Shown here piece after piece: positions 1-41,924 of a stretch of 64,000 nt of DNA; position 1 is the stretch's first letter; each line of letters begins with the position of its first letter. The stretch is taken from positions 8,144 to 72,143 of the forward strand of contig JAVCCW010000030.1 of the NCBI GenBank assembly GCA_030765235.1, read 5' to 3'. Source of the DNA: Candidatus Gorgyraea atricola. GTDB lineage: Bacteria > Omnitrophota > Gorgyraeia > Gorgyraeales > Gorgyraeaceae. The notes below the pieces were generated by a model, which was not told the origin of the DNA, did not search any database, and saw nothing but the letters and a program-made list of their open reading frames with translations. The position numbers and the translations under genes are program-made.

Positions 1-1777
1 TGCTCGAAAGTTCTTTCTTTGCCCTTGTGTAAGATTCATCAATGATCCTGCGCACCTCTCCATCTATCTCCACCGCGGTCTGTTCGCTGTAATTCTTTTC
101 TTCGGTTATGTCGCGGCCCAGGAATACCTGATGTTCGCGCCTGCCAAAGGTAAGACTGCCTAGCTTCTCGCTCATGCCCCAGCGCATGACCATGTCTCTC
201 GCGATAGCAGTGGTCTTTTCGAGATCGTCCTGCGCGCCAGTTGAAAGCTCTTTAAACACGATTTCCTCGCTGGCCCTGCCTCCAAGTATCCCGACGATCT
301 TCCCAAGAAGCTCTTTTTTAGTAACGATGTGCCTGTCTTCTATGGGGAGTCTCATGGTATAGCCAAGCGCAAGACCCCGCGGTATAATCGAAACCTTATG
401 CAGCGGATCTGCGCCAGGTATAAGAAGCGCCAGAAGCGCGTGGCCTGCCTCATGATACGCGACGATCTTTTTTTCCTCTACATTTATCACACGCGTCTTT
501 TTTTCAGGGCCTGCGATCACCCTTTCTATGGACTCCTGCATATCTTTTATTTCGACACTATTTTTATTTTTCCGCGCAGCTAAAAGCGCTGCCTCATTTA
601 CCAGATTTGCCAGGTCTGCGCCTGAAAAACCAGGCGTCTGCCGCGCAATGTCCTTCAGATCAACGGTCTTATCTATCTTTATACTCCTAATATGGACCTT
701 TAGGATCTCTTCTCTGCCAATAATATCAGGACGTGTAATAACAACCATCCTATCAAACCTGCCTGGCCGCAAAAGCGCGGGATCAAGCACATCAGGCCGG
801 TTAGTCGCTGCGATCAATATAACGCCTTCCTGTGTATTAAAGCCGTCCATCTCCACCAGGAGCGCATTCAACGTCTGCTCTCGCTCGTCGTGCCCGCCGC
901 CAATACCCGCGAACCTCTGCCTGCCAACCGCGTCTATCTCATCCATAAAAATGATGGCGCCTTTACCGCCTGTCTTTGCAGCGCGCTTTGCCTGCTCAAA
1001 GAGATCCCGAACCCTTGAAGCGCCAACACCGACAAACATCTCTACAAAATCAGAACCGCTGATGCTGAAAAACGGCACGCCTGCCTCGCCGCTAACTGCC
1101 TTTGCCAGGAGCGTCTTGCCTGTGCCAGGCGGGCCCATCACCAACACGCCCTTGGGAATTTTTCCGCCAAGCTTCTGAAATTTTTTCGGGTCTTTTAAAA
1201 ATTCAATGATCTCTTTTAGTTCTTCCTTTGCCTCATCCACACCAGCGACATCCTTGAAGGTGATCTTTGTCTGTCCGCCAGCTATCTGCCTGGCGCGGCT
1301 CTTTCCGAATGAAAGGATCTTTCCTCCACCATGCGAAGCGCTTCTATACACAAAGAACCACAAAAATCCTATAAACAAGATCATCGGGCCAAGAGAATAA
1401 AAAAGATTTGCCAGTAATGTCCTTGAAGGCCTCACATCAAAATCCTCAACATTCTTTTTCAATAGCCGCAAGAGATCCTGGTCGCTGTCAGGGATATGCA
1501 CAGCAAAACTCGTGCCACTTGAAAAAACGCCCTTGATCCTAGAGTCAGTCTTAACAGCAGATGCTATGGCGCCTGTATCCATGTTGGTCTCGAGAAGTCT
1601 GTAGAATTCGCCGTAGCTTAATTCCTGTGGCACGCCCTGCGCAGAAAAAGAGCCTAGCCTAAGGATGTACGTAAGAAGCAGAAAAAGTCCTACCCACAGA
1701 AATATATTCTTGCTCATCTTGTTCTTATCATTGTCAGCCTTCTTAACAGGCTTTTTTACAGGGTTCGTCTTTTGCAT
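1..1777 (-). CDS. ftsH: ATP-dependent zinc metalloprotease FtsH; 3' end beyond window start, start codon ATG at 1775-1777
   Basis: Minus-strand translation gives the Walker [25 protein letters not shown], the AAA second region of homology, the HEAGHAL zinc motif and an N-terminal TM segment. Not in the ORF track because it is open at the window edge. Confidence 0.9.
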
Positions 1778-1811
1778 AGATAGTATATTTTAGCACCTAT
1801 GTGTTAAAAAA

Positions 1812-2807
1812 TCAACCCCTCAAACACAAAGATATGCTTTTTTTGTGCTTTACCACATCCACGCCTGAAGGTAGATCGACCTTTGAATTCACTGGCCTTA
1901 CATAAATCAACTGCTCCAGTTCCTTCCAATGTTGATAGGTAAGTCTCCTCAAGTTCCCTTTGATCTGAAGTAGCGCGGCTCTCAATATCCTCTTTCTTAC
2001 TGCCTCCGGCTGAGACTTGAATCTCTTAAGATCTATTAGAATGTGGCCGTTGTTAATTTTCGAAGAGCTTTTTAATTTTCTATTCGCGAACTTTTCTAAA
2101 AATTCATTTTCAACGCGCAGGTTCTCAGCCATATTAGCCAGGACCTCTTTTATGTTCGCATTAAAATTCTTTTCTAAGTAAGGCATCAATTCACGCCTGA
2201 TCTTGTTCCTGGTAAAAATGAGTTTTTCATTGGAAGAGTCTTGCCTGAATTGCAAGTCCTCATCTTTTATAAAAGCTTCTATCTCTTGGCGCGAGATCTC
2301 GATAAGAGGCCTGATTATTTTAATACCTCGCATCTCTTTTACTGGGTTCATGCCTCCCAGGCCTAACATGCCAGCTCCGCGAATCATCCTCATAAGAACT
2401 GTCTCTGCCTGGTCATCTTTATTGTGGGCGACTGCTATTTTTGTTATATCCTTGGCCTTAGCGATCTCTTTGAAAAAATCATACCTCTCTTGCCGGCCAG
2501 CCTCTTCAGGAGAAATACCTTTTTCCTTGGCGACCTGCGGGACGTTTATTTCTTTATAAGTTATTTCCAGCTTTAATTTTTTTGCAAGGCCTTCACAAAA
2601 CTTCCTATCACCCACAGACTCCTCACCCCTAAACATATGATCTAAATGCGCAATATGTATATATAGCGAGAATTCTTTTTTTAATGCCGAAAACGCATGG
2701 AGCAGGGCAACAGAATCAGCCCCGCCAGAAAGCCCCACTAAAATCCTGTCGCCTTTCTGCAGCATCTGATACTTTTTAATTGTAGCCCTGATTTTCTCAA
2801 TAAACAT
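1812..2807 (-). CDS. tilS: tRNA(Ile)-lysidine synthetase
   Basis: PP-loop motif LVGLSGGADSVALLH near the N-terminus, length 331 aa, conserved tilS-ftsH neighbourhood. Confidence 0.85.
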   Translation of the reverse strand: MFIEKIRATIKKYQMLQKGDRILVGLSGGADSVALLHAFSALKKEFSLYIHIAHLDHMFRGEESVGDRKFCEGLAKKLKLEITYKEINVPQVAKEKGISPEEAGRQERYDFFKEIAKAKDITKIAVAHNKDDQAETVLMRMIRGAGMLGLGGMNPVKEMRGIKIIRPLIEISRQEIEAFIKDEDLQFRQDSSNEKLIFTRNKIRRELMPYLEKNFNANIKEVLANMAENLRVENEFLEKFANRKLKSSSKINNGHILIDLKRFKSQPEAVRKRILRAALLQIKGNLRRLTYQHWKELEQLIYVRPVNSKVDLPSGVDVVKHKKSISLCLRG

Positions 2808-2920
2808 GGTGGTCTCCTACGCTCATGCGTTGCTAATCTCTGTAGCATGCTTCGGAGACTAAAGGTGGTGGCTTGCCATCCAAAGCATGCTTCGAAGATT
2901 CGCCCAATTTGAGCGTAGGA

Positions 2921-2997
2921 TGGTAGCGGCGAGTGGATTCGAACCACTGACGCGCCGGGTATGAGCCGACTGCTCTGACCAGCTGAGCTACGCCGCC
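2921..2997 (-). tRNA. tRNA with CAU anticodon (Met elongator or Ile2/lysidine substrate), CCA encoded
   Basis: Cloverleaf folded by eye: acceptor GGCGGCG/CGCCGCT, D-arm GCTC-AGCTGGTCA-GAGC, anticodon stem GTCGG/CCGGC with loop CTCATAC, T-arm AGTGG-TTCGAAT-CCACT, 3' ACCA. No C1-A72 mismatch or GGG anticodon stem, so not an initiator. Confidence 0.8.
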
Positions 2998-3029
2998 AAT
3001 TTTTGCGAAGCAAAAATTGATCCCGAGCA

Positions 3030-3056
3030 AGTCAAATAATGCGAAGCATTATTTGA
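3030..3056 (-). terminator. hairpin between the PP-loop ATPase gene and tRNA-CAU
   Basis: GTCAAATAATGC-GAA-GCATTATTTGAC perfect stem. Confidence 0.4.
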
Positions 3057-3079
3057 CGCGTCGAGGGACCTCCTTTGCT

Positions 3080-3826
3080 TCACAATACCTCATTCAAACT
3101 TCCTGTCCTATATCCCTCAAGATCCAGGGCAACATACTTAAAGCCTAGCCCCTTCAAATGCCTTACTATTTTATCACAAAATCTCTGATTAAAAAATTTT
3201 TTTACATCTTTTTTCTCAACCTCGAGCCTTGCTGTGTCATTGTGATACCTGACCCTTACCAGATCTACGCCCAGATCCCTGATAAAATTCTCAGCCTTTT
3301 CTATTCTTTGCAGTGTTACTTTACTGATCCGCTTACCATAAGGTATCCTTGATGCAAGGCACGGCATTGGAGGCAGATCCCATGTTTTTAGTCCCTGCCT
3401 TTTAGAAAATCTGCGTATCTCCTGTTTTGTTATTCCTGCCTCCTGCAAAGGGCTCCGCACCCCCAGCTCTTCTTTTGCCTTAGTTCCCGGGCGATAATCG
3501 CTTTTATCGTCGATATTTGACGCGTCAATAACGATACCTTTTGCCATGCGTTTCAGTTTTATAAATAATTCCTTTTTGCAGTAATAACATCTATCCTTTG
3601 GGTTCTTGATAAATCTTTTGTCTCTCATCTCATTTGTATAAATTATCTTGTGCCTGATCCCTAATGACTTCGCAAATTTTTTCGCCTGAGCCAATTCTCT
3701 CTTCGTATATGTATCTGAAACAGCAGTAACGGCCAGCACATCTTCTTTTGGCAATAGATCTCTCGTCATCTTCAGCAAAAAACTAGAATCCACGCCGCCA
3801 GAAAACGCCACCACCACGCTACCCAT
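3080..3826 (-). CDS. PP-loop superfamily ATPase, TIGR00268/LarE-like; track ORF extends to 3904, start MGSVVVAF at 3826 preferred
   Basis: SGGVDSS PP-loop motif plus a C-terminal CYYCK cysteine motif typical of this family. The shorter start removes the 47-nt overlap with mnmA. Confidence 0.65.
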   Translation of the reverse strand: MGSVVVAFSGGVDSSFLLKMTRDLLPKEDVLAVTAVSDTYTKRELAQAKKFAKSLGIRHKIIYTNEMRDKRFIKNPKDRCYYCKKELFIKLKRMAKGIVIDASNIDDKSDYRPGTKAKEELGVRSPLQEAGITKQEIRRFSKRQGLKTWDLPPMPCLASRIPYGKRISKVTLQRIEKAENFIRDLGVDLVRVRYHNDTARLEVEKKDVKKFFNQRFCDKIVRHLKGLGFKYVALDLEGYRTGSLNEVL

Positions 3827-3857
3827 CTTCCCTAAAACATTTTCTAGCCTCTTAAGC

Positions 3858-4907
3858 TTATCCAAACACTTTGTCGATCCAGCCGCCGCCAAGCACATAC
3901 TCACCGTCGTAAAATACTGCTGCCTGGCCCGGTGTAATCGCCTCCTGCTCCTGATTAAACTCCACTTCTAGATCCCCGTCCTTCGTCTCTTTCAAAGATG
4001 CCCTTGCTTTTTTATGAGAATATCTTATCTTGACCTCTGCCTCTTCGACCTTAGGCGAAAGCCAATTAACGCCCTTGACCATAAATCTCTTTTTCTTTAT
4101 CTCGGAGAAATCGCCCACCACTATCTCATTCTCTTCCGGCTTTATCTTTATAACATAAAGAGGGTTTTTGTGAGCTATGCCCAGACCTCTGCGTTGCCCT
4201 ATTGTGAAATTCCAAAATCCATTGTGAGAGCCCAGTATCTTGTTATTAGAATCGATTATGTCACCCTTCTCAGGCTCTTTTTTTATAAATTTAGCGTAAT
4301 CATTGTCCAGCACAAAACATATCTCCTGGCTATCTGCCTTTTCGTGAACTTTTAATCCTAGCTCTTTCGCCTTATTCCTCACGCTAAACTTGTCAAAGCC
4401 CCCTAAAGGCAGCAAGATCTTATCAATGCTGGGAAGAGAAAATAAAACGTAAGACTGATCCTTGGCTTTATCCGCAGATTCTTTTAATCTTAGCGCTCCA
4501 TTGCTTTCAATTCTTGCATAGTGGCCCGTGGAAATAAAATCGCATTCCAATTCTCCAGACTTTTTAAGCAGACTTCCAAATTTTATCTTTTCATTGCACA
4601 CGATACATGGATTAGGGGTCCGGCCCTTGAGGTATTCACTGATGAAATAATCAATGACCTCTTTTTTAAACACCTTTTCAAAATTTAATACATAATGCCT
4701 TATACCTAAAACATCACAGACCCTTTTTGCATCTTCTATGTCCTTAAGCGAGCAGCACGACTTATCCCTGTGTTTTCCGCAATACTCCTCTGGCCATATC
4801 TTCATGGTCGCGCCTATGACCTCGTAACCCTGCTCCTTTAATATAGCAGCAGCTACAGAACTATCCACACCCCCACTCATTGCAACCAGTACTCGCCTCT
4901 TATGCAT
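3858..4907 (-). CDS. mnmA: tRNA-specific 2-thiouridylase
   Basis: VLVAMSGGVDSSVAA PP-loop, 349-359 aa, conserved MnmA blocks. The track start at 4937 is a TTG inside a CCAATGACC repeat; ATG at 4905-4907 follows AAGGAG. Confidence 0.85.
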   Translation of the reverse strand: MHKRRVLVAMSGGVDSSVAAAILKEQGYEVIGATMKIWPEEYCGKHRDKSCCSLKDIEDAKRVCDVLGIRHYVLNFEKVFKKEVIDYFISEYLKGRTPNPCIVCNEKIKFGSLLKKSGELECDFISTGHYARIESNGALRLKESADKAKDQSYVLFSLPSIDKILLPLGGFDKFSVRNKAKELGLKVHEKADSQEICFVLDNDYAKFIKKEPEKGDIIDSNNKILGSHNGFWNFTIGQRRGLGIAHKNPLYVIKIKPEENEIVVGDFSEIKKKRFMVKGVNWLSPKVEEAEVKIRYSHKKARASLKETKDGDLEVEFNQEQEAITPGQAAVFYDGEYVLGGGWIDKVFG

Positions 4908-4916
4908 GCATCTCCT

Positions 4917-5036
4917 TACCAAATGACCAATGACCAATGACCAATGTCAAATAAATTTCCAATGCCCAATGACCAATTGGAAATTGGATAATTGGGAATT
5001 TATTGGGATTTGGTAATTGGGCATTTGTCATTGCGC
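4917..5036. repeat. CCAATGACC/CCAATTGG-rich imperfect palindrome between nfnB and mnmA
   Basis: Three direct CCAATGACC units, then ...CCAATGCCCAATGACCAATTGG AAATTGG...ATTGGGCATTTGTCATTG inverted arms. Confidence 0.6.
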
Positions 5037-6451
5037 CTTAGATAGTCATGTATCGCGCGGGCGGCGCGTTTGCCTGCGCCCATTGCTGCGATTACTGTGT
5101 CATCACCGTATGTGGCGTCGCCGCCAGCGTACACGCCTTTTAGATTCGTTGCTTGTGTCTCTGGATCCACAACTACCTTATTCCACTTATCGACTTTTAG
5201 TTCAGGTGTTGCTTTTAAAAATACTGGATTTGGGCTCTGGCCGACTGCCACTATAACTGTATCGACATCCATAGTAAACTCTGATCCCTCGATTGGGATC
5301 GGCCTTCTCCTGCCAGATGCGTCAGGCTCGCCCAGCTTCATCTTCACACACTCCATGCCTTTCACAAAATCCTTTTCATCCCCGAGTATTTTTTTAGGAA
5401 GCGTTAATATGTGCAGCTCGATCCCCTCTTCCTTCGCGTTCTCTACCTCTTCTCTTCGCGCAGGCATCTCTTTTTCTGAGCGCCTGTAAACTATATAGAC
5501 TTTTTCCGCGCCAAGCCTGAGAGAAACGCGGGCCGAGTCCATTGCAGTGTTGCCGCCGCCAATGACTGCCACACGTCTTCCTATATTTATAGGTGTGTCG
5601 TATTCTGGAAAAAGATACGCCTTCATTAGATTCGCCCTTGTTAAAAGCTCATTCGACGAGTAAACCCTGTTAAGATTCTCGCCTGGTATTTTCATGAAAC
5701 TCGGCAGTCCCGCGCCTGTACCAATAAAAACAGCCTTGTACCCCTCTTCGTACAGTTCCTTTAACGTCGAAACCTTCCCTACTATAAAATTCATCTTGAT
5801 CTCAACACCTAAAGACTTCAAATATTCTACTTCCTTTTTTACAATATCCTTGGGCAAGCGAAACTCAGGAATACCATAGACCAATACTCCTCCTGCAGTA
5901 TGCAATGCCTCAAATACAGTAACGCGATACCCAAGCCTTGCCAGATCCCCTGCGCAAGTAAGCCCAGCCGGCCCAGAACCAATGACTGCTACTTTAGCCC
6001 CACTCGTCCTTGTCCCTTGTCCCTTGTCACTTGCCTGCCCCGTACGAAATCTTTGATTTTCGTATGGGGTCCCTTCTTTAAGCTCCCAGTCTGCAGCAAA
6101 CCTCTCAAGCCCGCCTATATTTATAGGTGTCTTTTTCGCAGCCAGTACACACACGCCCTCGCATTGATCTTCCTGCGGGCAAACCCTGCCGCACACGCCA
6201 GGAAGATTATTTTTCTCTTTGATGATCTTAATGGCATCGTCGAATTTCTTATTTTTTATAGCTTCAATAAAACGCGGTATGTCTATTTCAACAGGGCACT
6301 TCGTCGAGCACCTGGGTTTTTTACAAAAAAGGCATCGGCTGGCTTCATTGACAGCCTCCTCCTGAGATAATCCAAACGCCACTTCATTGAAATTCTTGGT
6401 CCTATCTTTGGCGTTCTGCTTCTTCACTGTAATATCCCCCTTATCTTGCAC
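5000..6451 (-). CDS. nfnB: NfnB/GltD-like flavoprotein (glutamate synthase small-chain / SudA family), FAD/NAD(P) plus 2x[4Fe-4S]
   Basis: Cys cluster CLFCKKPRCSTKCP...CPQEDQCEGVC, dinucleotide fold KVAVIGSGPAG and a second GxGxxA. Lies downstream of a PyrK-like partner. Confidence 0.75.
   Translation of the reverse strand: MQDKGDITVKKQNAKDRTKNFNEVAFGLSQEEAVNEASRCLFCKKPRCSTKCPVEIDIPRFIEAIKNKKFDDAIKIIKEKNNLPGVCGRVCPQEDQCEGVCVLAAKKTPINIGGLERFAADWELKEGTPYENQRFRTGQASDKGQGTRTSGAKVAVIGSGPAGLTCAGDLARLGYRVTVFEALHTAGGVLVYGIPEFRLPKDIVKKEVEYLKSLGVEIKMNFIVGKVSTLKELYEEGYKAVFIGTGAGLPSFMKIPGENLNRVYSSNELLTRANLMKAYLFPEYDTPINIGRRVAVIGGGNTAMDSARVSLRLGAEKVYIVYRRSEKEMPARREEVENAKEEGIELHILTLPKKILGDEKDFVKGMECVKMKLGEPDASGRRRPIPIEGSEFTMDVDTVIVAVGQSPNPVFLKATPELKVDKWNKVVVDPETQATNLKGVYAGGDATYGDDTVIAAMGAGKRAARAIHDYLRRNDKCPITKSQ
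6004..6073. repeat. composite (CCCTTGT)n plus CCCCGTACGAAATCTTTGATTTTCGTATGGGG palindrome, in frame in nfnB
   Basis: Reads GTPYENQRFRTGQASDKGQGTRTSG immediately before the KVAVIGSGPAG FAD motif. Confidence 0.75.
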
Positions 6452-7245
6452 GCGTGTTTCTCCTGCTCCTTAAAAAGCCCTTGCCGCGCCATCAGCTCTT
6501 TAAAATTCACCTGGTGCGCGTCAAACTCAGGGCCGTCAACACATGCAAACTTTGTCTCGCCGCCCACTTCGATCCTGCATGAACCGCACATGCCAGTCCC
6601 ATCCACAAGAACTGTGTTTAAAGAGGCAAGTGTCTTTATTTTATGCGGTCGTGTCAGATCCGCAACCACCTTCATCATGATCGCTGGCCCAACAGCATAC
6701 ACTAGATCTATTTTTTTGTCGGAAGCAATAAGTCTCTTCAAGACATCTGAGACAAAACCCTTTTCTCCATCAGAGCCGTCATCAGTAGTAATAAAGATCT
6801 TATCGCACGCCTTGCTAAGTTTATCTTTAAATATAACAAGCTCTTTATTTCTCGCGCCCACGATAACGATCACCTCATTACCCGCGGCCTTGTACGCCTT
6901 TGCCACAGGATAAAGCTCTGCAATGCCAACACCTCCGCCAATACAACACACGGTTCCTATCTTCTTGTTATCTGTCTTGTGGCCCAATGGTCCAACAACA
7001 TCCAGCAAAGACTCGCCTTGTTTTTTCTCTGTGAGCCTGTGTGTTGTCACACCAACCACCTGATACACGATAGTGACAGTGTTTTCGCTACGATCAGCTA
7101 TAGTAAGCGGTATGCGCTCGCCTTTTTCATCGATCCTTACCATGACGAACTGGCCTGCCGCAGCCTTTTTAGCTACTACGCTCGCCTCGAGTTCCATCTT
7201 AAAAAGCGCTGGCGCTATTTTCTCATTCGATAAGATCTTATGCAT
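6424..7245 (-). CDS. nfnA: NfnA/SudB/PyrK-like FAD and 2Fe-2S electron-transfer subunit
   Basis: Ferredoxin-NADP reductase-like fold, C-terminal Cys cluster CGSC...CVDGP, 273 aa. Order small-then-large matches nfnAB. Confidence 0.7.
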   Translation of the reverse strand: MHKILSNEKIAPALFKMELEASVVAKKAAAGQFVMVRIDEKGERIPLTIADRSENTVTIVYQVVGVTTHRLTEKKQGESLLDVVGPLGHKTDNKKIGTVCCIGGGVGIAELYPVAKAYKAAGNEVIVIVGARNKELVIFKDKLSKACDKIFITTDDGSDGEKGFVSDVLKRLIASDKKIDLVYAVGPAIMMKVVADLTRPHKIKTLASLNTVLVDGTGMCGSCRIEVGGETKFACVDGPEFDAHQVNFKELMARQGLFKEQEKHACKIRGILQ

Positions 7246-7936
7246 CAGCTTCCTCCCCTATCAATCTCAAGCCTTTTAATGTCAATTCCGGGTCGATTTT
7301 ATCAACGCTTTTACAATAAGGCGCGATAAGACGCGACATTCCCCCTGTTGCTATAACTTTTTTTCGTCCATATCTCGCGATAATACCATCGCACATGCTG
7401 CTAAAACCATACACGGCGCCATTTATCATGCTCTGGCGAGTATCTTTTCCTAAAACACCTCTTGGCTTTCCCAGCTTCACCTTAGGTAAAAGCACGGCCT
7501 TGTTTGAGAGCGCTTCAAGTGAGATCTCAACACCAGGCATAATCACGCCTCCGAGATATTCCTTCCTATCGTTTACAACATCTATGGTAATAGCTGTGCC
7601 AAAATCTACTATAATACAGCTCCCGCCATACAGCTCGTAAGCTGCCCGAGCATTAACTAATCTATCCTGACCCACTTGTCTCGGGTTCTTATACATATTT
7701 TTTACTCCGCTATCAATATCCCTGCCCACAACCATAGCCTTCTTACCCAATGCCTTCTCAACATCCTTGAGCGCCTTTGGCACTACACTTACAGCAATAA
7801 CAGCGTCGAATCTCTTTTTGTATATTGATCTCAAATTCCTGCTATTAGTAGACACCCTGAAGCTCTCTTTCAAGACCTTGCCCTCAAATATGCCGTTATG
7901 AATATACGTATTTCCAATATCTATCGCCAATAACAT
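7238..7936 (-). CDS. coaX: type III pantothenate kinase
   Basis: MLLAIDIGNTYIH N-terminal motif, ~230 aa, ASKHA fold. Confidence 0.85.
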   Translation of the reverse strand: MLLAIDIGNTYIHNGIFEGKVLKESFRVSTNSRNLRSIYKKRFDAVIAVSVVPKALKDVEKALGKKAMVVGRDIDSGVKNMYKNPRQVGQDRLVNARAAYELYGGSCIIVDFGTAITIDVVNDRKEYLGGVIMPGVEISLEALSNKAVLLPKVKLGKPRGVLGKDTRQSMINGAVYGFSSMCDGIIARYGRKKVIATGGMSRLIAPYCKSVDKIDPELTLKGLRLIGEEADA

Positions 7937-7938
7937 AA

Positions 7939-8901
7939 TTACCTCAGCATTGTGATATCGCCGGCAAGGACGCGCTCGTTAAAACCAGAATCGAGCCTCA
8001 ATATAAGGGCCCCATCCCTATCCACATCTATGGCCTGGCCTGATATAAGCCTATTATGATAATTTATCTGGACGCGCCTGTCAAGCACTGCGGATAACTT
8101 TTTATATTCGGACAAAATGTCGCCTATCTTGCCTTTATTGAATATTTTATAGTATCTGTCAAGATTGACTAAAACTGTTTTAACAAATTCCAACCTTGAA
8201 ACCTGACAATGTCTTTCTTCTGCAAGAGATGTAGAGCCTTCAGGCAATAGTTCCTTTTTCGTATTTATATTAATACCTATCCCAGCTATAACAAAATTGA
8301 TCTTATCTGTTTCGCCATTCAATTCTGTCAATATACCGCACACCTTAAGGCCATTTATAAGAATATCGTTCGGCCACTTAATATATGCGGAAAGTCCTGC
8401 TGTTTCCCGCGCTGACTTTGCAACACTAAGCGCTGAGATAAGCGTGATCAAGGACACCTCTCTTGGCAAAATGTCCGGCCTTAATATTATTGAAAAATAA
8501 GCACCCTTGCCCCTTGGCGAAACCCATTTTCGCCCGAGTCTGCCGCGACCCTTTGTCTGATACTCTGCCACTACTACTGCGCCCTCTTTTTCGCCAGATA
8601 TAGCCAGCTCATGCACCGCGTCATTGGTAGAAGATATCTCTTTATAGGAATAGATCTTTTTACCTATTATCTCGGTCTTAAGATCTCGCCTCAACTCGAT
8701 CGAGCTCAAGATATCTGGAAGCGCCATTAATTTATAACCAAGGTGTGGAGACGCCATGATGTCATACCCTTCTTCACGCAGTTTTTCAATGTGCTTCCAT
8801 ATAGCTGTGCGCGAAACACCAAGCGCCTTGCTCAACTCTTCGCCCGAGGCATATTTATCTTTTCGCTTTTTAAAAAAATCTAATATCTTCTCGTCCATCA
8901 T
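7939..8901 (-). CDS. birA: bifunctional biotin-protein ligase / biotin operon repressor
   Basis: N-terminal HTH ([27 protein letters not shown]) plus BPL catalytic region (GRGRLGRKW). Confidence 0.85.
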
Positions 8902-10859
8902 GATTTTTTGAGTTGTTTGATCCTGTCCCGCAATTCTGCTGCACGCTCAAACTGCAGGTTTCTCGCGCAGAGTTCCATTTCTCTCTGCATCTCACCGACC
9001 AGGCTATCGACCTCATATTCCTCTTCGCTCTGGCCAGTTACATCAACAACAGTGCCCTCTGCTTTTTTGGCGATCTCTATGCCATCTTTAACAGCCTTCT
9101 CTATTGACTTTGGTGTAATATTGTTCTTCTTATTAAATTCGAGCTGCTTCTCTCTCCGCCTCTCTGTTTCTTGCATGGCCCTTTCCATGGATTTCGTTAC
9201 TGTGTCCGCGTACATGATCACCTGGCCGTCGATATTTCGCGCAGCCCTGCCTGCTACCTGAATAAGCGCTGTCTGCGACCTTAGAAATCCCTCCTTATCA
9301 GCGTCTAAAATCGCGACCAATGACACCTCAGGAAGATCCAGGCCTTCGCGCAATAGATTTATGCCCACCAGGCAATCGAATTTCTGCTTTCTTAAATCGC
9401 GTAATATCTCAACGCGTTCAATCGTCTGTACCTCAGAATGCAGATACCTGACCTTTAATTTCGCATCCTTTAAATACGCTGTAAGATCCTCTGCCATCCT
9501 CTTGGTCAAAGTCGTGACCAGCACCCTCTGGCCTTTTTTGGCGCGGTCCCTTATATTTTGCGCAAGATCATCTATCTGGCCATCAGTGGATTTAAGTATG
9601 ATCTCTGGATCAATAAGTCCTGTCGGCCTTATCAATTGCTCGACGACCTGACTGGATTCCTTTAGCTCATACTCGGACGGTGTAGCTGAAACAAATATCT
9701 TTTCATTGATCACGCTGGTAAATTCCTCGAAATTTAGCGGCCGGTTATCCAGCGCGGACGGGAGTCTAAATCCATAATCAACAAGCGTTTTTTTACGCGC
9801 CTGGTCGCCATTGTACATGCCCCTTATTTGCGGCACTGAGACATGTGATTCATCAAGAATAGTCAGAAAATCATCTGGAAAATAATCTATAAGACAATAC
9901 GGCCTTGACCCAGGAGAACGGCCGCTCAGATGCCTTGAATAATTTTCTATGCCATTGCAAAAGCCCAGCTCCCACAACATCTCAATATCATACCGCGTCC
10001 TGGAATTAAGACGCTGCGCCTCGAGTAATTTATTCTGAGACTTTAATTCCTCGAGCCTTTCCGCTAATTCAACGCGTATCGAAGCAATGGCCTTCTCTAT
10101 CTTTTCCTGCGTCGTGACAAAATGCTTCGCAGGATAAATAGCTATTTTTTCCACCTCTCCTAAAACCTCTCCCGTCAATGGATCTATCTCTAATATCTTC
10201 TCTATTGTGTCGCCAAAAGAATCCACCCTGAACACTGTTTCCTTATACGCGGGGAATATCTCCACGATATCGCCCCTTACTCTGAAACATCCACGCGTAA
10301 AATCAATATCATTCCGCGAATAGCGTATATTTATAAGCTTTAAAAGAAGGGTGTCCCTTTTTATCTTCTGTCCCCTTTCTAAAAATAACAGAAGTTTCTG
10401 GTAATCTTCCGGAGAACCCAGGCCATATATGCACGAGACACTGGAAATAATGATCACATCCCGCCGCGACATAAGACTGCTCGTAGCTGAAAGCCTGAGC
10501 CTGTCGATATTATCATTGATTGAGGCATCCTTCTCTATATAGGTATCTGTGTGCGGGACATACGCCTCTGGCTGGTAATAATCATAGTAACTTACGAAAT
10601 ACTCGACTGCGTTATGCGGGAAAAATTCCTTGAACTCAGCATAGAGTTGCGCGGCAAGTGTCTTATTATGCGATATTACAAGCGTTGGCCTCTGCACATC
10701 AGCAATGACATTTGCCATTGTAAATGTCTTGCCGCTGCCAGTAACGCCAAGAAGGGCCTGAGACCGAACGCCTTTTTTTAGCCCCTGCGTGATCTTCTCA
10801 ATAGCCTGAGGCTGGTCCCCCTGCGGCTTAAACGAACTGACTAACTTAAATTTAGACAT
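8898..10859 (-). CDS. uvrB: excinuclease ABC subunit B
   Basis: [17 protein letters not shown], Walker [13 protein letters not shown], helicase motifs and C-terminal UVR domain. Confidence 0.95.
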
Positions 10860-11700
10860 TTATTTCCAAGGAGAAATCTACAGATGGAGCTGAGTGGGTA
10901 AGAGCGCCTATTGAAATCCTGTCAACACCTGTACGTGCAATCTTCGCAACATTTTCTAAATTAATGCCCCCAGATACTTCTAACATCACCCTTGTCCCTT
11001 GTCTCTTGTTACTTGTCCCTAACCTCGTTGCTTTTCTTATATCTTCTAACGTCATGTTATCCAGCATTATAATATCAGCGCCTGAGGCCAGGGCCTTTTT
11101 AAAATCTCCCAGATTATCAACCTCTACCTCGATATTCTTATAATGTTTATTCTTTGCCCTTGCCACAGCATCCTCGATGCTGCACAGAGACAGGTGATTA
11201 TCCTTGATCAAGACCTGGTCCCATAACCCCATCCTGTGATTAGAGCCGCCCCCCACTCTCACAGCATATTTTTCCAAGACCCTCATGCCAGGCATGGTCT
11301 TTCTCGTATCAAATATCTTCGCCTTTGTCTTTTTTATCTTTTCTACAAACTCGGCTGTAAGCGTACTGACACCTGAAAGCCTGCTAAGAAAATTCAATGC
11401 AGTCCTCTCGCACGTCAGGATATTCTTTACAGGCCCTTTTATAGAAGCGATCTTCTTTCCCTTTTTAATGGTAGCTCCGTCATTATAAATCGATCTAAAG
11501 ATTATCCTTTCGTCCAGCGCGGTAAACACCCACTTTGCAACATCTATGCCGCAGAGCACGCATTCCTCTTTCGCGACAATGTCAGCCAGAACGATCATGT
11601 CTTTCTCAAAAATCGCTCCAGAGGTGATATCGCCGCCTCCCACATCTTCACCTAAGGCAGCCATTATTATTGGTAGGATTTTTTCTCTTACAGGTTTCAT
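10852..11700 (-). CDS. nadC: nicotinate-nucleotide pyrophosphorylase (carboxylating)
   Basis: QPRTase C-terminal blocks [12 protein letters not shown]...[13 protein letters not shown]; contains a heptamer-repeat insert. Confidence 0.85.
10987..11019. repeat. (CCCTTGT)-like heptamer tract in frame in nadC
   Basis: CACCCTTGTCCCTTGTCTCTTGTTACTTGTCCC; reads TSNKRQGTR at a site where E. coli NadC, from memory, is shorter. Confidence 0.6.
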
Positions 11701-14405
11701 AATGCTTTCAGGGTCTCGCTCAACCTTTTTATCTGTTCTTTCAACTTTAGACTCTTTTCCTTCTCCTGGCTTACTATTTTTTCAGGCGCCTTTTTAACAA
11801 AATTCTTGTCCTTTAGTCTTTTTTCAGTAAATCCCAGCTGCCTGTCAAGTTCCTCTCTCTTCTTACCAAGTCTTTTCTTTTCCGCATCAAGGTCTATAAT
11901 ACCTTTTAGCGGCACAAAGATATTAAAATCCTCTAACACTGCCGTAGCGCAGCCTTCAGGTTTTTTCATGTCCTTATCTATCACCAGCTCCTCTAATCGA
12001 GCAAGATTCTTTATGTAGTCAATGCCTCCTTTTAATTTACCCTCCGCGCCTTTTTTTAAAGGCGCCAGGTACACTTTAAATCTTTTCGTATGCGGGATAT
12101 TCATGTCAGCGCGTATATTTCTTATGCTCACGATAATGTTTTTTATGATCTCGACACTGTGCTCGATATCCTTTTTAATCGCCTTTTTATCTACGCTCGG
12201 CCATTTCTCTGTAATTATACTTTCTCTTTCCTTTATATTCTGCCACACCGCCTCTGTCACAAACGGCATAAACGGATGCAGTAACTTCAAAGAGCTTTCA
12301 AGGATATGTATTAATACGCATTCCGTTACCCGTTGGCCCGTTGGCCCGTTGGCCCGTTGCATTAGTTGCGGCTTTATTATCTCGAGGTACCAATCGCAGA
12401 ACTCATGCCAGAAAAAATCGTAGACCAATGACTCTGCCTCATTGAACCTGTACTGCTCGAGAGACTTTGTTGCAGCCTCGATTGTCTTATTGAGCCGGCT
12501 AAGTATCCACTTATCCGCCAAGCTAAAAGCCGAGGCTGGACCTCGGCTTTTTGAAAAAAGCCGAGGTCCAGCCTCGGCTTTTTGAATGTTCATCAACACA
12601 AATCTCGACGCATTCCAGATCTTGTTGGCAAAGTTTCTGCCGATCTCAAATTTTTCTTTGGAGAGAAATACGTCTTGCCCTGTCGCTGTTATGGCTATCA
12701 TGCTGTATCTCAATGCATCTGTGCCAAATTCATTGATGATGTCTATAGGATCTATGATATTGCCGAGCGACTTTGACATCTTCTTGCCTGTAAGATCCCT
12801 GACTGTGCCATGCAGATAGACATCACTGAATGGGATCTCTCCTGTAAATTCCATACCTGCCATGATCATTCTTGCCACCCAGAAAAATAATATCTCTGGC
12901 GCGGTAACCAAAACATCTGTTGGATAAAAATATTTGAGATCTTCTGTCTTTTCTGGCCAGCCAAGCGTAGAAAACGGCCACAGCCACGACGAAAACCATG
13001 TATCCAGCACATCCTCGTCTTGTCGTATCTTAGTAGAGCTGCACTCTGGGCATCTCTCTGGGTTCACCTTTGAAACAATCACCTCTCCACAAGTTTCACA
13101 ATAATAGACTGGAATCCGGTGGCCCCACCAAATTTGACGAGATATGCACCAATCCCTGATATTCTCCATCCAATTCAAGTACACCTTTGTCCATCTCTTG
13201 GGATAGAACTTGATCTTGCCTTTTTTCACTGCGTCAATGGCTGGCTTTGCGAGCGGCTTCATCTTAACGAACCACTGCTTCGACAAATAAGGTTCCACAG
13301 CAGTGTGGCATCTATAGCAATGCCCTACAGCATGATGATGCGATTCTATCTTCACAAGCAATCCTTTTTCTTCTAATTCTTTTACAATACCTTCTCTTGC
13401 CTGGAATCTATCTTTGCCGTTGTATGAGCCTGCATTCTCATTCATTGTAGCGTCAGGATTCATTACAAGAACAGGTTCTAAGTCGTGCCTATTGCCTATC
13501 TCAAAGTCATTTGGATCATGCGCTGGCGTGACCTTAACCGCGCCTGTGCCGAATTTTTTATCCACAAAATCATCCGCGATAATTGGTATCTCGCGGCCGA
13601 TTATTGGAAGGGTCAATTTTTTACCAACGAGTTTTTTGTATCTTTTATCCTTTGGATTAACAGCTACAGCCACATCCCCCAACATAGTCTCCGGCCTCGT
13701 AGTAGCAACTGTAACCCCTTGTCCTTTGCCTGCCCCGTACGAAATCTTCGATTTTCGTATGGGGTCCCTTGTCCCTTGTCCCTCCGCAAGTAGATACTTG
13801 ATATAGTACAGCTTCCCCTCAGTCTCCACATGTGGAGCTTCCTCATCAGAGAGAGCGGTCTTGCACCTTGGACACCAATTGATAATATAGTTTCCTCTAT
13901 ATATAAGGCCTTTTTTATGAAGACTTACAAATGCCTCCAAGACTGCGTCGGAAAGTCCTTTATCCATTGTGAAACGCGTCCTTGCCCAGTCACACGAGGC
14001 GCCCAGCCTCTTCAGCTGCATGATAATAGTGTTTCCATACTCCTCGCGCCACTTCCATACCTCTTTTACGAATCCCTCGCGGCCCAGATCGTCCCGCTTC
14101 TTTCCCTCCTTAGCGAGTTTTTTCTCCACGACGTTTTGCGTAGCAATGCCAGCATGGTCAGTACCTGGTACCCACAAGCTCGCAAAACCCTGCATCCTCT
14201 TCCAGCGGATCAAGATATCCTGCAGAGTATTATTCAATGCATGGCCCATGTGCAAAATGCCTGTTACATTCGGCGGAGGAATGACTATGGTAAAGGGTTT
14301 TTTGCCAGATTCTGGCTTAGCGCTAAAAACCCCCTGCGCCTCCCATTTCGAATATATAGACTTTTCAACTTCTTGAGGATTATATCGGGCAGGAATCTCT
14401 TTCAT
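11697..14405 (-). CDS. valS: valyl-tRNA synthetase
   Basis: HMGHALN (HIGH), KMSKSLGN, VATTRPETMLGD and a C-terminal coiled coil; 902 aa with three in-frame repeat inserts. Confidence 0.95.
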   Translation of the reverse strand: MKEIPARYNPQEVEKSIYSKWEAQGVFSAKPESGKKPFTIVIPPPNVTGILHMGHALNNTLQDILIRWKRMQGFASLWVPGTDHAGIATQNVVEKKLAKEGKKRDDLGREGFVKEVWKWREEYGNTIIMQLKRLGASCDWARTRFTMDKGLSDAVLEAFVSLHKKGLIYRGNYIINWCPRCKTALSDEEAPHVETEGKLYYIKYLLAEGQGTRDPIRKSKISYGAGKGQGVTVATTRPETMLGDVAVAVNPKDKRYKKLVGKKLTLPIIGREIPIIADDFVDKKFGTGAVKVTPAHDPNDFEIGNRHDLEPVLVMNPDATMNENAGSYNGKDRFQAREGIVKELEEKGLLVKIESHHHAVGHCYRCHTAVEPYLSKQWFVKMKPLAKPAIDAVKKGKIKFYPKRWTKVYLNWMENIRDWCISRQIWWGHRIPVYYCETCGEVIVSKVNPERCPECSSTKIRQDEDVLDTWFSSWLWPFSTLGWPEKTEDLKYFYPTDVLVTAPEILFFWVARMIMAGMEFTGEIPFSDVYLHGTVRDLTGKKMSKSLGNIIDPIDIINEFGTDALRYSMIAITATGQDVFLSKEKFEIGRNFANKIWNASRFVLMNIQKAEAGPRLFSKSRGPASAFSLADKWILSRLNKTIEAATKSLEQYRFNEAESLVYDFFWHEFCDWYLEIIKPQLMQRANGPTGQRVTECVLIHILESSLKLLHPFMPFVTEAVWQNIKERESIITEKWPSVDKKAIKKDIEHSVEIIKNIIVSIRNIRADMNIPHTKRFKVYLAPLKKGAEGKLKGGIDYIKNLARLEELVIDKDMKKPEGCATAVLEDFNIFVPLKGIIDLDAEKKRLGKKREELDRQLGFTEKRLKDKNFVKKAPEKIVSQEKEKSLKLKEQIKRLSETLKAL
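12324..12360. repeat. (CCCGTTGG)n octamer tract in frame in valS
   Basis: CCGTTACCCGTTGGCCCGTTGGCCCGTTGGCCCGTTGC; reads ANGPTGQRVTE. Confidence 0.65.
12527..12590. repeat. two tandem terminator-like hairpins (AGCCGAGGCTGGACCTCGGCT family) in frame inside valS
   Basis: AAAAGCCGAGGCTGGACCTCGGCTTTTTGAAAAAAGCCGAGGTCCAGCCTCGGCTTTTTGAA; reads as KAEAGPRLFSKSRGPASAF within the intact valS ORF. Confidence 0.75.
13717..13784. repeat. same composite palindromic element, in frame in valS
   Basis: CCCTTGTCCTTTGCCTGCCCCGTACGAAATCTTCGATTTTCGTATGGGGTCCCTTGTCCCTTGTCCC; reads EGQGTRDPIRKSKISYGAGKGQGV just before VATTRPETM. Confidence 0.75.
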
Positions 14406-14436
14406 GGTTTTGTCATTATGCTGAAGTTATTGCGCA

Positions 14437-14474
14437 GCTTCTGTAGGCCAGGTTTAAACCTGGCCTACAGAAGC
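14437..14474. repeat. GCCAGGTTTAAACCTGGC-core palindromic hairpin (copy 1), between cimA and valS
   Basis: GCTTCTGTAGGCCAGGTTTAAACCTGGCCTACAGAAGC perfect palindrome. Confidence 0.7.
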
Positions 14475-14500
14475 GGGAGACTGCTAAAGCGTAAAGATCT

Positions 14501-16069
14501 CTATTTGATTTTGTCTTTTAATAGTTTGTACTCGACGCTGTCTACTAGGGCTTGCCAGCTGGCTTCGATGATGTTCTCTGACACGCCAACAGTGCCCCAG
14601 GACGAACGCTCGTCCTGCGACTGGATCAACACACGGACCTTTGCTGCAGTGCCTGCTTTTTCATCCAGCACCCTTACCTTGAAGTCAGACAAATGCATCT
14701 TTGCGAGCGTTGGATAAAATTTGTTCAGTGCCTTACGCAGCGCATTGTCCAACGCATTCACAGGACCATCGCCCTCCGCGGCTGTGTGCTCCTCTTTCCT
14801 GTTTACCTTTACCTTTATAGTCGCCTCTGATATAAGGGTGTTATCTTCCCTTTTCTCAATGCTCACCTTAAAACCCTCGAGACTAAAAAATGGCTTATAT
14901 TTTTTCAGCGCCTTTTTCATCAAGAGCTGAAACGAAGCATCAGCTGCCTCAAAATAATATCCTTGATTCTCAAGATTCTGTATAAGCCTTAAGATCTTCT
15001 TGGTCTTTGGGTCCTCCTTTGAAAGATCTAGCTCCATCTCTTTTGCCTTAAGGATGATACTAGTCTTGCCTGAGAGCTCTGAAACAAGGATCCTTCTGTG
15101 ATTCCCCACTAACTCTGGCTTAATGTGTTCATATGTCTCGGGATTTTTCATGACCGCGTTGACATGCACGCCGCCTTTATGCGCGAAAGCGGACCTGCCA
15201 ACAAAAGGCTGATTATCCTTTTGTTTCATGTTCGAAAGCTCGCTCACGTACCGTGAAACTTCTGTAAGCTCCTTCAGCTTAGAATCTGACACGCACCTGC
15301 GCCCCATCTTTAATTGAAGATTTGGCACAATAACACACAGGTCTGCGTTCCCGCAGCGTTCGCCGTAACCATTGATCGTACCCTGCACCATGCTGCACCC
15401 TGCATCCACCGCGGCAATAGTATTTGCAACAGCCATGCCGCTGTCATTGTGTGTATGAATCCCTAAAGGCACCTGAAACTCACTTGCCAGAGCCATAACG
15501 ATCCTTGCCAGCTCATACGTAATCATGCCGCCATTTGTATCGCACAACACGATCTCGTCACACCCAGCTTTTACAGCTGTTCGCAGCGTCTCCAGCGCAT
15601 AATCCTTATTATTCAGATATCCGTCAAAAAAATGCTCTGCGTCGTAAAACACTTTACGCTTTTTAGACTTCAGATACTCGACTGTCTCTTTGATTATGTC
15701 CAGGTTTTCCTGCAAAGAAACGTTCAGGACGTCTTCTACGTGCAGATCCCAGGTCTTTCCAAACACAGTCACTGTTTTTGCGCCAGAGTTCAGGAGTGAC
15801 TTCAGATTACCGTCTTTTGCAGGGCTGATCTTTGCCCGTTTGGTGCTGCCAAAGGCAACTACCTCAGATTTTTTAAACCTGGTCTTCATAGCTTCTTTAA
15901 AAAATGCCATGTCTTTTGGATTAGACCCAGGCCACCCGCCTTCTATATAATGAATCCCCAGCAGATCCAGCTTCTTCGCGACCCTTAGTTTATCATTCAA
16001 AGAAAAGGAAACCCCTTCTCCCTGCGAACCATCCCGTAATGTAGTGTCATATAACTTGATTTCCTGCAT
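14501..16069 (-). CDS. cimA: (R)-citramalate synthase / 2-isopropylmalate synthase family, CimA-type; start MQEIKLYDTTLRDG at 16069 preferred
   Basis: DTTLRDGSQ, IEGGWPGSNPKD (TIGR00977-like) and a LeuA-dimer regulatory C-terminus. The shorter start has a GGGAAGAAGGG RBS and abuts the lysC stop. Confidence 0.75.
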   Translation of the reverse strand: MQEIKLYDTTLRDGSQGEGVSFSLNDKLRVAKKLDLLGIHYIEGGWPGSNPKDMAFFKEAMKTRFKKSEVVAFGSTKRAKISPAKDGNLKSLLNSGAKTVTVFGKTWDLHVEDVLNVSLQENLDIIKETVEYLKSKKRKVFYDAEHFFDGYLNNKDYALETLRTAVKAGCDEIVLCDTNGGMITYELARIVMALASEFQVPLGIHTHNDSGMAVANTIAAVDAGCSMVQGTINGYGERCGNADLCVIVPNLQLKMGRRCVSDSKLKELTEVSRYVSELSNMKQKDNQPFVGRSAFAHKGGVHVNAVMKNPETYEHIKPELVGNHRRILVSELSGKTSIILKAKEMELDLSKEDPKTKKILRLIQNLENQGYYFEAADASFQLLMKKALKKYKPFFSLEGFKVSIEKREDNTLISEATIKVKVNRKEEHTAAEGDGPVNALDNALRKALNKFYPTLAKMHLSDFKVRVLDEKAGTAAKVRVLIQSQDERSSWGTVGVSENIIEASWQALVDSVEYKLLKDKIK

Positions 16070-16071
16070 AT

Positions 16072-41815: not shown

Positions 41816-41841
41816 CTTACTCCTCCTTGATTTCGACGCTT

Positions 41842-41918: not shown

Positions 41919-41924
41919 AAATCT

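Follow-up and report, generated by a model that had tools for sequence, protein, structure and literature searches.

The 64,000-nt stretch of DNA from Candidatus Gorgyraea atricola (Omnitrophota) analyzed here, referred to as the window, carries very short repeats in frame within the genes of core enzymes. These repeats form three nested layers, namely tandem arrays of the heptamer GGGACAA, a 36-nt hairpin module (hairpin A) and a 24-nt module (module 2), and not one composite element. We put at roughly 55% the probability that they are nested, very small, non-coding selfish DNA repeats that persist within genes as selection retains only the harmless insertions. The evidence comes from filled and empty sites at a fixed phase among close relatives, from the re-use of a few loop positions with quantized lengths across the phylum, and from identical DNA being translated in different frames.

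Repeat content of the window

Motif enrichment was assessed by comparing matches in the window with expectation and, for the palindrome, with 100 shuffles. The 32-nt palindrome CCCCGTACGAAATCnnnGATTTTCGTATGGGG contained in hairpin A was found three times with 0-2 mismatches (6038-6069, 13733-13764 and 37448-37479), and none of the shuffles gave any copy. The second module, CGCCTGTCCCGAGCGAAGTCGAGGGATGTCCC, has two exact copies (37409-37440 and 61127-61158; 0 expected), and CCCTTGT dimers occupy 16 positions against 0.26 expected. On the sense strand this unit reads GGGACAA, or CAAGGGA depending on the phase. Arrays of GGGACAA were detected in at least seven of approximately 55 genes (nfnB, valS, hisH, a radical SAM gene, nadC, trpE and hisF), and every copy of the palindrome, module 2 and the heptamer runs lies within an intact open reading frame (ORF). 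The ORFs that host modules are all on the minus strand and encode an NfnB/GltD-type oxidoreductase (5000-6451), valyl-tRNA synthetase or ValRS (11697-14405), HisH (37188-37862) and a TIGR03960-type B12-binding radical SAM protein (60093-61676). The radical SAM protein is 100% identical to one from the Candidatus Gorgyraea atricola genome; an exact-match look-up returned no record for the ValRS. The mapped features are as follows.

6007-6033, minus strand: heptamer array in nfnB, sense (CAAGGGA)n, on the gene-3' side of the hairpin; the relative L012 has the array without the hairpin
6034-6069, plus strand: nfnB copy of the 36-nt hairpin module A, composed of CCTG and the palindrome at 6038-6069; folds best on the plus strand, i.e. 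antisense
13716-13728, minus strand: valS heptamer array, flanks the hairpin toward the 3' end of the gene
13729-13764, plus strand: 36-nt hairpin module A in valS, encodes PIRKSKISYGAG
13765-13785, minus strand: valS heptamer array, flanks the hairpin toward the 5' end of the gene
37400-37410, minus strand: heptamer array flank in hisH
37411-37434, minus strand: 24-nt module 2 in hisH, sense TCCCTCGACTTCGCTCGGGACAGG, encodes HPSTSLGT; no significant hairpin
37435-37443, minus strand: single heptamer unit in hisH, separates module 2 from hairpin A
37444-37479, plus strand: 36-nt hairpin module A in hisH, encodes PIRKSEISYGAG; identical sequence in the independent metagenome contig L015
37480-37491, minus strand: heptamer array flank in hisH
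61111-61128, minus strand: heptamer array flank in the radical SAM gene
61129-61152, minus strand: 24-nt module 2 in the radical SAM gene; hairpin A absent here
61153-61169, minus strand: heptamer array flank in the radical SAM gene
10989-11020, minus strand: heptamer-only array in nadC, the hairpin-less counterpart of an array plus hairpin in L012
34888-34920, minus strand: heptamer-only array in trpE, 4.7 perfect GGGACAA units
36054-36085, minus strand: heptamer-only array in hisF
12329-12359, minus strand: octamer array (CAACGGGC)n in the second valS slot; relatives hold other units there
12525-12586, no strand assigned: two back-to-back terminator-like hairpins (family D3), in frame, in the third valS slot

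A preliminary description of the window had proposed a composite heptamer-plus-palindrome element at four sites. The repeated family is real by the above counts, the peptides quoted for it are correct on translation, and the extra module noted in two copies corresponds to the exact copies of module 2 in hisH and the radical SAM gene. As also stated there, the nfnB insert, in which hairpin A encodes PYENQRFRTGQA, sits directly before the FAD-binding motif (GSGPAG). The four sites stand, with the heptamer-only arrays of nadC, trpE and hisF having been overlooked; the segment at 61112-61165, taken for a partial copy of the element, has no palindrome and comprises heptamers and module 2 only. In-frame insertion is correct insofar as all copies lie in intact ORFs, but it follows necessarily from the integrity of these ORFs.

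Independent variation of arrays and hairpins among relatives

Five loci syntenic with positions 1-17000 of the window were obtained from relatives (L012, L014, L027, L028 and L029), and the DNA of nfnB, nadC and valS was aligned and read on the sense strand, with the window's own locus denoted WIN. The ValRS identity to the window is 91% for L012, 87% for L014 and about 79% for L027, L028 and L029. Arrays or modules are present in five independent assemblies.

In nfnB, WIN reads ...AGGGA / CCCCATACGAAAATCAAAGATTTCGTACGGGGCAGG / CAAGTGACAAGGGA... and L012 reads ...AGGGA / CAAGGGACAAGGGA..., which is a clean 36-nt difference in an otherwise identical array. A 27-nt hairpin relative occupies the same junction in L027 (CCCCGTACC-ACAAG-GGTACGGGG-CAGG), while the slot is filled by (CAGCCTT)n in L014 and by (CGAACGA)n in L028. 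In nadC, WIN has the array alone, L012 has the array together with its own 36-nt hairpin CCCAGCACCAGTCGCTTCGCTCCGGTGCGAGGCAGG, and L027 and L029 are empty. Site A of valS is empty in L029 (KEGQ/GQG), holds only an array in L028 and an array of another unit without a hairpin in L014. The three remaining loci carry different 36-nt hairpins at this site: hairpin A in WIN, a hairpin specific to L012 and located one unit further 5' than hairpin A of WIN, and a third one, within the array, in L027.

Heptamer array, 36-nt hairpin and 24-nt module each vary on their own, as is evident from nfnB and nadC and, in other species, from cysS and from hairpins beside foreign heptamers (see below); the single composite element of the preliminary description is hence replaced by three nested layers. 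The suggested comparison with relatives that lack an insert yielded empty sites in nfnB (L012), valS (L029) and the radical SAM gene (homolog P0122). Filled and empty sites between close relatives, in nfnB, nadC and valS, read as a signature of mobility at the level of sequence, and to this extent the notion of a mobile element colonizing coding sequence was upheld.

The point of insertion is constant. In WIN, L012 and the nfnB copy of L027 it always falls at GGGA^CAAG (sense) of the heptamer, a unit junction that can also be written GGGGCAGG^C. No target duplication was found at the WIN, L012 and L027 junctions, and 4-nt direct repeats flank only the perfect-palindrome subtype. Among the modules that land in arrays are hairpins of at least three families measuring exactly 36 nt, a 27-nt family and the 24-nt module 2, with a GGRCAGG-type 3' end in common. 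All seven hairpin A copies of the organism, four of which come from a metagenome (see below), and both copies of module 2 are located inside GGGACAA arrays.

Several of these features would also be expected if the repeats spread without an enzyme, by replication or repair errors such as microhomology-mediated template switching or short-tract gene conversion, followed by selection. A nascent strand with a heptamer at its end would stall at a hairpin or G-rich array, re-anneal out of register or with a distant array of the same unit, copy units or a hairpin from there and then switch back. The lack of target duplication, the junctions in the same unit phase and the confinement of all seven hairpin A and both module 2 copies to arrays of the same unit in this genome are consistent with such a process, as is the absence of a transposase from the scanned ORFs. 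Slot arrays replaced by the dominant unit of a genome (an octamer at valS ~686 in WIN and L027, GGGACAA in L012), one substitution repeated in every unit of an array (CAACGGGC versus CAACGAGC) and the array-specific one-step variants of L028 also point in this direction. On the other hand, three unrelated hairpins of exactly 36 nt each with a shared GGRCAGG end look like a processed unit. In nfnB only about 5 nt of array flank the hairpin on one side, which is not enough for ordinary homologous recombination and favors targeted insertion. Moreover, hairpin A occurs in species with unrelated units and at array-free sites (cysS; intergenic DNA of L008, L016 and L018), where array homology cannot carry it because the units are unrelated or the array is missing. 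The short homology in nfnB and the array-free sites argue against simple recombination between arrays as the sole route, and we regard enzyme-free spread as the principal alternative, though a rather unlikely one.

Location of the inserts in host proteins

The hairpin region of ValRS corresponds to an 18-residue gap relative to the T. thermophilus enzyme (1GAX), and the other two repeat-bearing regions of valS are likewise gapped against 1GAX. In HisH, about 27 residues remain unaligned between two well-aligned blocks, and NfnB has about 10 additional residues in the linker directly ahead of GSGPAG. In the radical SAM protein, a homolog with 85% identity (P0122) has no insert at the slot; most orthologs have an additional 7 aa there. 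Judging from the alignments with 1GAX and with homologs of HisH, NfnB and the radical SAM protein, the segments are true insertions and not conserved parts of these protein families.

Surface-loop placement, which the preliminary description had proposed to examine on structural models, was observed for ValRS. In the AlphaFold2 model of the window protein (mean predicted local distance difference test score, pLDDT, of 79.8), the only long segments with pLDDT<50 are residues 211-227, the hairpin A insert, and 610-623, the double-hairpin insert. The former is modeled at the tip between strands 192-206 and 230-235, and the octamer slot at a break between two helices. Catalytic motifs are intact on either side of the inserts, including HMGH and KMSKS in ValRS, GSGPAG in NfnB and the Cys/His motifs of HisH.

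Slot occupancy and array turnover across Omnitrophota

Slots were further compared in alignments of 74 ValRS and 95 radical SAM orthologs from Omnitrophota, with slot lengths of the latter counted in 79. Length variation is concentrated at few positions and is quantized. Site A of ValRS measures 7-8 residues when empty (n=14), 14-15 in the +7 aa state (n=33), 21-22 (n=6) or 26 (+7+12, n=5), and the radical SAM slot measures about 10-12 residues when empty and otherwise 17 (53 of 79), 25 or 33. The +7 state has a 7-aa periodicity, which implies three heptamers, the minimum in-frame number (21 nt). The same slots are re-used with a unit that differs in nearly every lineage, for example GEGCRVK, AQGSRLK or IEHRAKS.

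Array sequences turn over rapidly. The valS slot at ~686 is occupied by (CAACGGGC)n in WIN, (CAACGAGC)n in L027 and (GGGACAA)n in L012. The nfnB array of L014 is in reverse-complement orientation to the valS unit of the same locus and for this reason requires an independent event. Equal array lengths in WIN, L012 and L014 were considered as proof of in-situ conversion and then downgraded; because +21 nt is modal everywhere, equal length is weak evidence of common descent. Unit usage also varies between relatives. All arrays in WIN and L012 (four in the latter) consist of nearly pure GGGACAA, L028 has one-step unit variants, one per array, L014 has several units, and no arrays were found in 18 kb of the same genes in L029. 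A rule of one unit per genome is therefore only partly true, as WIN and L012 are pure and L028 and L014 have several related units.

In other Omnitrophota, residue ~441 of ValRS (zinc-knuckle) is another hot slot, at which the window valS has no insert. The inserts in P0027, P0043, P0022, P0039 and others, e.g. CHCEEPKATKQSPEIASL..ARND and ANELTVDSSPRTKTSLVRGRQLTEKN, look like translations of other widespread small palindromic repeats.

Coding properties and orientation of the modules

Every module length (36, 36, 36, 27 and 24 nt) is divisible by 3. None of the modules or units contains a stop codon in any of the six frames, a property of 2.3% of the 36-mers in the window. Hairpin A is read as PIRKSKISYGA in eight coding copies and as PYENQRFRTGQ in three; the 24-nt module contains ...CTTCGCTC..., and the insert-encoded peptides include GTRDPIRKSKISYGAGK. 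Between L001 and L011, whose RluD inserts are orthologous, the reading frame of the insert changes because the upstream unit number differs. The related peptides described previously do recur, but as a by-product of the DNA element, with two frames in this genome and different ones in the RluD orthologs; the encoded peptide is incidental.

Selection for new flexible or charged loops, which could serve for instance as interaction surfaces or improve solubility, would fit the hydrophilic character of the sense-strand peptides (mean hydropathy -0.6 to -2.4; -2.3 for the heptamer) and their location in exposed loops. However, identical DNA is read in different frames, one slot holds unrelated peptides in close relatives and none in others, and the modules are found in intergenic DNA as well. 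Such protein-level adaptation is largely refuted by the frame and slot comparisons, and we consider it very improbable.

With respect to orientation, all seven hairpin A copies of the organism face the same way relative to the gene, in accordance with the preliminary description. This uniformity does not extend to the family, since copies in the genes for TsaD (L002) and a YfhO-like protein (L009) have the opposite orientation and are still in frame, and intergenic copies face both ways; strict sense orientation was accordingly ruled out as a family rule. The antisense heptamer would encode LSLVPCP with a hydropathy of +1.5, compared to the hydrophilic sense reading, and selection alone can thus explain the orientation bias. 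All but one of the approximately 55 genes in the window are on the minus strand, and the GC skew of the plus strand is uniform at about -0.2 over 64 kb. Gene orientation is inseparable from strand or replication bias within the window, as its genes share one strand.

Structure of the modules

Hairpin A is a 32-34-nt stem-loop with the ends (C)CTG-CCCC...GGGG-T. Its conserved outer stem is GCCCCGTAC/GTACGGGGY, followed by a CAGG-type tail. It is predicted to be more stable antisense to the genes (-18.7 kcal/mol, z -5.7) than in the sense direction (-14.0 kcal/mol, z -3.5), its mismatch being G:U on the antisense strand and A.C on the mRNA. Module 2 was ruled out as a hairpin (z about 0 on both strands). 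A CRISPR-like array, an idea prompted by the 36-nt length, was also ruled out, given that a repeat-spacer organization is absent.

The strand asymmetry is one of the observations in line with a functional nucleic-acid signal, e.g. a protein-binding site, an uptake or recombination signal, an antisense terminator or a translational pause site, which would have to sit inside genes because 93% of the genome is coding. Likewise, the nfnB copy is terminator-like on the antisense strand, and the stem sequence is common to at least eight Omnitrophota metagenome-assembled genomes (MAGs). However, only one of the three window copies is terminator-like, copies are gained or lost between 87-91% identical relatives without an equivalent or are swapped for unrelated hairpins, and both orientations are found in genes and intergenic DNA of other species. 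Compensatory covariation is absent, with just one single-sided G:C/G:T change. The search against Rfam recovered only a tRNA in the whole window at gathering thresholds, and the composite element had no match even at E<=1. Arrays of at least four units are predicted to form G-quadruplexes, as in trpE (34888-34920), where the 4.7 coding-strand units give a predicted RNA G-quadruplex (-8.4 kcal/mol). This provides no general rationale, as none is predicted for three-unit arrays, most arrays have only three units and the units of other lineages lack G-runs. We consider a functional signal improbable.

Hairpin A beyond the window

Further copies of hairpin A were searched with an exact pattern over the 20-nt stem core in one genome per species, complemented by a metagenome scan. 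The core was found in eight Omnitrophota MAGs and one 'Planctomycetia' MAG, with a few chance matches besides. Exact matching fixes the 20 searched bases, so their conservation across species is not independent evidence; only the flanking G/CCC...GGG/Y positions count as such, because the pattern imposes the core. The shared G-CCC(C)...(G)GGG-Y extension provides this independent evidence of a family across species. Core matches in L004 and L017 (Saccharibacteria), L010, L020 and L021 were set aside as chance, being without the CCCC/GGGG extension and the context.

In other species, hairpin A resides in the genes for RluD, CysRS, TsaD and a YfhO-like protein and in intergenic DNA. It is flanked by unrelated heptamers in L001 (CGAACGA) and L002 (GTGATCC), and has no array at all in cysS of L005 and L006 and in the intergenic copies of L008, L016 and L018. 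In L003 (7640-7760), hairpin A is located within the loop of another palindromic repeat, gtcattgcgagg...cgaagcaatc, which recurs just downstream, i.e. one mini-element is nested in another. A family member with CCTGCCCC...TGGGG ends was observed between divergent genes in a Planctomycetia-labelled MAG (L008/L019), representing either a cross-phylum occurrence within the Planctomycetes-Verrucomicrobia-Chlamydiae (PVC) group or mis-binning.

The metagenome Ga0075122 contributed four more hairpin A copies of the same organism as the window, hosted by genes for a SPOR protein, Tgt, a ferredoxin-domain protein and, in the HhH-BRCT linker, LigA. Together with the three window copies, they all lie inside ORFs and have identical stems, the same G:T mismatch and the same junction, the latter three features suggesting recent amplification. 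Hairpin A had no match in viral contigs, giving no sign of a phage origin.

Every sequence considered here derives from MAGs or metagenome contigs, in which assembly or binning artefacts may occur. Nevertheless, identical or orthologous inserts are found in independent ENA, NCBI and JGI assemblies, the ORFs are intact, lengths are multiples of 3 and catalytic motifs are kept on both sides of the inserts. The chance of an artefact appears negligible.

A model for the origin and spread of the modules

On the selfish-DNA reading that we favor, a restricted number of permissive loop positions across many proteins are home to arrays of 7-nt units (GGGACAA here, with 8-nt variants), which usually add 21 nt (three units, 7 aa), turn over by slippage and are now and then replaced as a whole. 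Modules of 24-36 nt would then insert secondarily and precisely at the unit junction GGGA^CAAG, with no visible target duplication. Their repertoire comprises hairpin A, at least two other 36-nt hairpins, the 27-nt relative and the 24-nt ...CTTCGCTC... module. We infer that the modules are mobile but non-autonomous: a sequence-specific enzyme, encoded elsewhere in the genome and acting in trans, would copy them as single-stranded hairpins. The strand-asymmetric hairpin, conserved outer stem and short 3' tail are reminiscent of the logic of repetitive extragenic palindromic (REP) sequences with their REP-associated tyrosine transposases (RAYTs) and of the IS200/IS605 insertion sequences (IS). 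The encoded peptides would have no function of their own, and the insertions would be neutral. In a genome that is 93% coding, modules able to spread would be those whose length is a multiple of 3, that lack stop codons in every frame and that are hydrophilic when read in whichever orientation is tolerated.

A number of points weigh against this model. Neither the 30 scanned ORFs of the window nor the genes called in the syntenic loci, only a minor part of any genome, include a transposase, HUH/Y1, RAYT, TnpB or reverse transcriptase gene. Apart from the hairpin, no terminal inverted repeats are clearly present, and target duplication is absent or ambiguous. The conservation of the 20-nt core between species is a product of the search pattern. 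In nfnB, precise loss from L012 could be considered in place of a gain, with the hairpin being ancestral, since a 27-nt relative occupies the identical junction in L027. Finally, the hairpin may have a cellular function, and enzyme-free template switching explains several features equally well.

More tentatively, Omnitrophota might possess a dedicated trans-acting system that writes 24-36-nt hairpins, and perhaps the arrays too, into tandem-repeat junctions genome-wide, including loops of essential enzymes. It would represent a new minimal class of mobile elements with a repeat array as its target and might be akin in mechanism to the small dispersed repeats of cyanobacteria (see below). Whole-array replacement would in this case proceed through templated re-synthesis, carried out perhaps by an HUH enzyme or a reverse transcriptase, and not through passive slippage. 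We regard a system of this kind as unlikely.

Other repeats in the window

Besides the elements within genes, a perfect 38-nt palindrome, GCTTCTGTAGGCCAGGTTTAAACCTGGCCTACAGAAGC, has four intergenic copies (14437-14474, 32221-32258, 38515-38552 and 48510-48547). Its GTAG...CTAC layout is like that of classical GTAG-tagged REP sequences, and unlike the intragenic modules it has stop codons. The D3 terminator-like hairpin (AAAAGCCGAGG-n6-CCTCGGCTTTT) was found after two genes (30741-30771 and 61682-61745) and inside valS (12525-12586), where it forms an inverted back-to-back pair that is in frame and scores as a bidirectional terminator. The loops of this valS pair are mutually complementary, CTGGAC/GTCCAG in WIN and CCGAAC/GTTCGG in L012; both differ between the two loci and remain complementary, indicating that they changed together. 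In the L012 locus, D3 occurs only as the valS pair.

Intergenic arrays of other, mostly AT-rich, 7-8-nt units are located at 4920-5027, 33871-33960, 41841-41919 and 62808-62907. Two intergenic array pairs are inverted (TGTGTAA/ACATTAC and CGTTTGCC/AAACGGGC) and could form long hairpins, and the intergenic octamer AAACGGGC matches the coding octamer of valS, CAACGGGC, at 7 of 8 positions. The remaining indels among close relatives are mostly small palindromic or repeated intergenic insertions too. For instance, L012 has a 68-nt insert with abundant GTTCCGCG motifs and a perfect hairpin of 46 nt (about 8215-8235 and 10200-10245), and L014 has inserts of 44 nt and 131 nt (about 6485-6530 and 7257-7366). 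Three tandem paralogous genes for T2SSE/PilB-type ATPases (53740-58636) share segments that account for the repeat families D1 and D8.

Implications

Arrays are present in about 13% of the genes in the window, and hairpins have a density of about one per 20 kb. Should the window be representative, repeat-derived insertions would be found in several hundred core-enzyme loops of a single small genome and would amount to a natural, phylum-wide map of insertion-tolerant sites in conserved proteins and a steady supply of new disordered loops. Omnitrophota would also become a second independent lineage for studying how elements well below transposon size move. As filled, empty and differently filled slots are available in many MAGs of the phylum, the question can be addressed directly by comparative genomics. 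In practical terms, the inserts inflate apparent divergence and yield spurious 'hypothetical' peptides in the annotation of MAGs.

Comparison with known systems

The literature searched contained no account of such repeats in Omnitrophota, and the phylum-wide use of in-frame triplet heptamer arrays in core enzymes as landing pads for 24-36-nt modules appears to be undescribed. The closest likeness is to cyanobacteria, in which, as Elhai and co-workers are said to have described in 2008, arrays of heptameric short tandemly repeated repetitive (STRR) sequences contain nested small dispersed repeats (SDR4-6). SDRs are 21-27 nt long, and no mobilizing enzyme is known for them, their movement having been unexplained since 2008. 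The Omnitrophota modules resemble SDRs, which we compared by description, in being very small hairpins with filled and empty sites, an exact position inside a short repeat and a nested arrangement, and in both cases the host genomes are rich in tandem heptamers. They differ in their occurrence in Omnitrophota and not in Nostocaceae, in module length (24-36 nt), in targeting the heptamer array itself and in being mostly in frame within housekeeping genes. The dispersed short arrays of a genome-characteristic heptamer (seven window genes and four L012 arrays) are STRR-like, yet STRRs are mostly intergenic, whereas the GGGACAA arrays are all sense-strand in ORFs. According to citing papers (PMC5861425, PMC4390886), SDR5 inserts between nucleotides 3 and 4 of HIP1, and no SDR-like repeats are reported outside Nostocaceae.

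The Rickettsia palindromic elements (RPE), with which the preliminary description had drawn a parallel, are, in a later account, about 100-150 bp long, encode a conserved peptide in one frame and occur only in Rickettsia (Ogata et al. 2000, via PMC10969869). Both systems place palindromic repeats in frame within unrelated metabolic genes, apparently in a way compatible with fold and function. RPEs are not nested in arrays and have 4-6 times the length of the present modules; the latter use several reading frames, target arrays and belong to Omnitrophota. The comparison holds by analogy only, as size, architecture and target differ.

REP sequences are extragenic palindromes with a GTAG or CGTC tag at one end that are mobilized by RAYTs, which are IS200/IS605-like Y1 enzymes (PMC3733652, PMC3184786). 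They resemble hairpin A in being imperfect palindromes, 20-40 nt long and present in numerous copies, with hairpins that differ between the strands and stems adjoined by a short conserved tail, and recognition and cleavage of a single-stranded hairpin in the manner of RAYTs is a plausible mechanistic model by analogy. In contrast to REPs, hairpin A has no GTAG or CGTC at either end, and 7/7 copies of the organism are intragenic. A cognate RAYT/Y1 gene was not among the 30 scanned ORFs or the syntenic-locus genes. MITEs, i.e. miniature inverted-repeat transposable elements, have IS-related terminal inverted repeats and target site duplications and are usually more than 50 bp long. The present modules differ from them in their 24-36-nt length, in the lack of duplications at the WIN, L012 and L027 junctions and in having no parent IS in sight.

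Genome-characteristic heptamers in many dispersed short arrays are also known from Xanthomonas and Nostoc, where the G-rich GGGAATC and GGGGAYT are mainly intergenic (PMC4692102), and from Beggiatoaceae and cyanobacteria, where TAACTGA repeats are mainly intergenic too (PMC4679880). The Xanthomonas and Nostoc units further share a G-quadruplex potential at four or more units. Unlike all of these, the GGGACAA arrays are on the coding strand of ORFs and mostly have three units. Borg genomes provide a last comparison, with intragenic repeats in which the length of each unit is a multiple of 3 nt. In the window, units measure 7 or 8 nt, the frame is kept at the level of the array only, and hairpin modules are superimposed. 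The two systems are alike in their fast-evolving intra-ORF tandem repeats that add disordered hydrophilic segments, the Borg repeats being reported to create disordered regions (PMC9879509).

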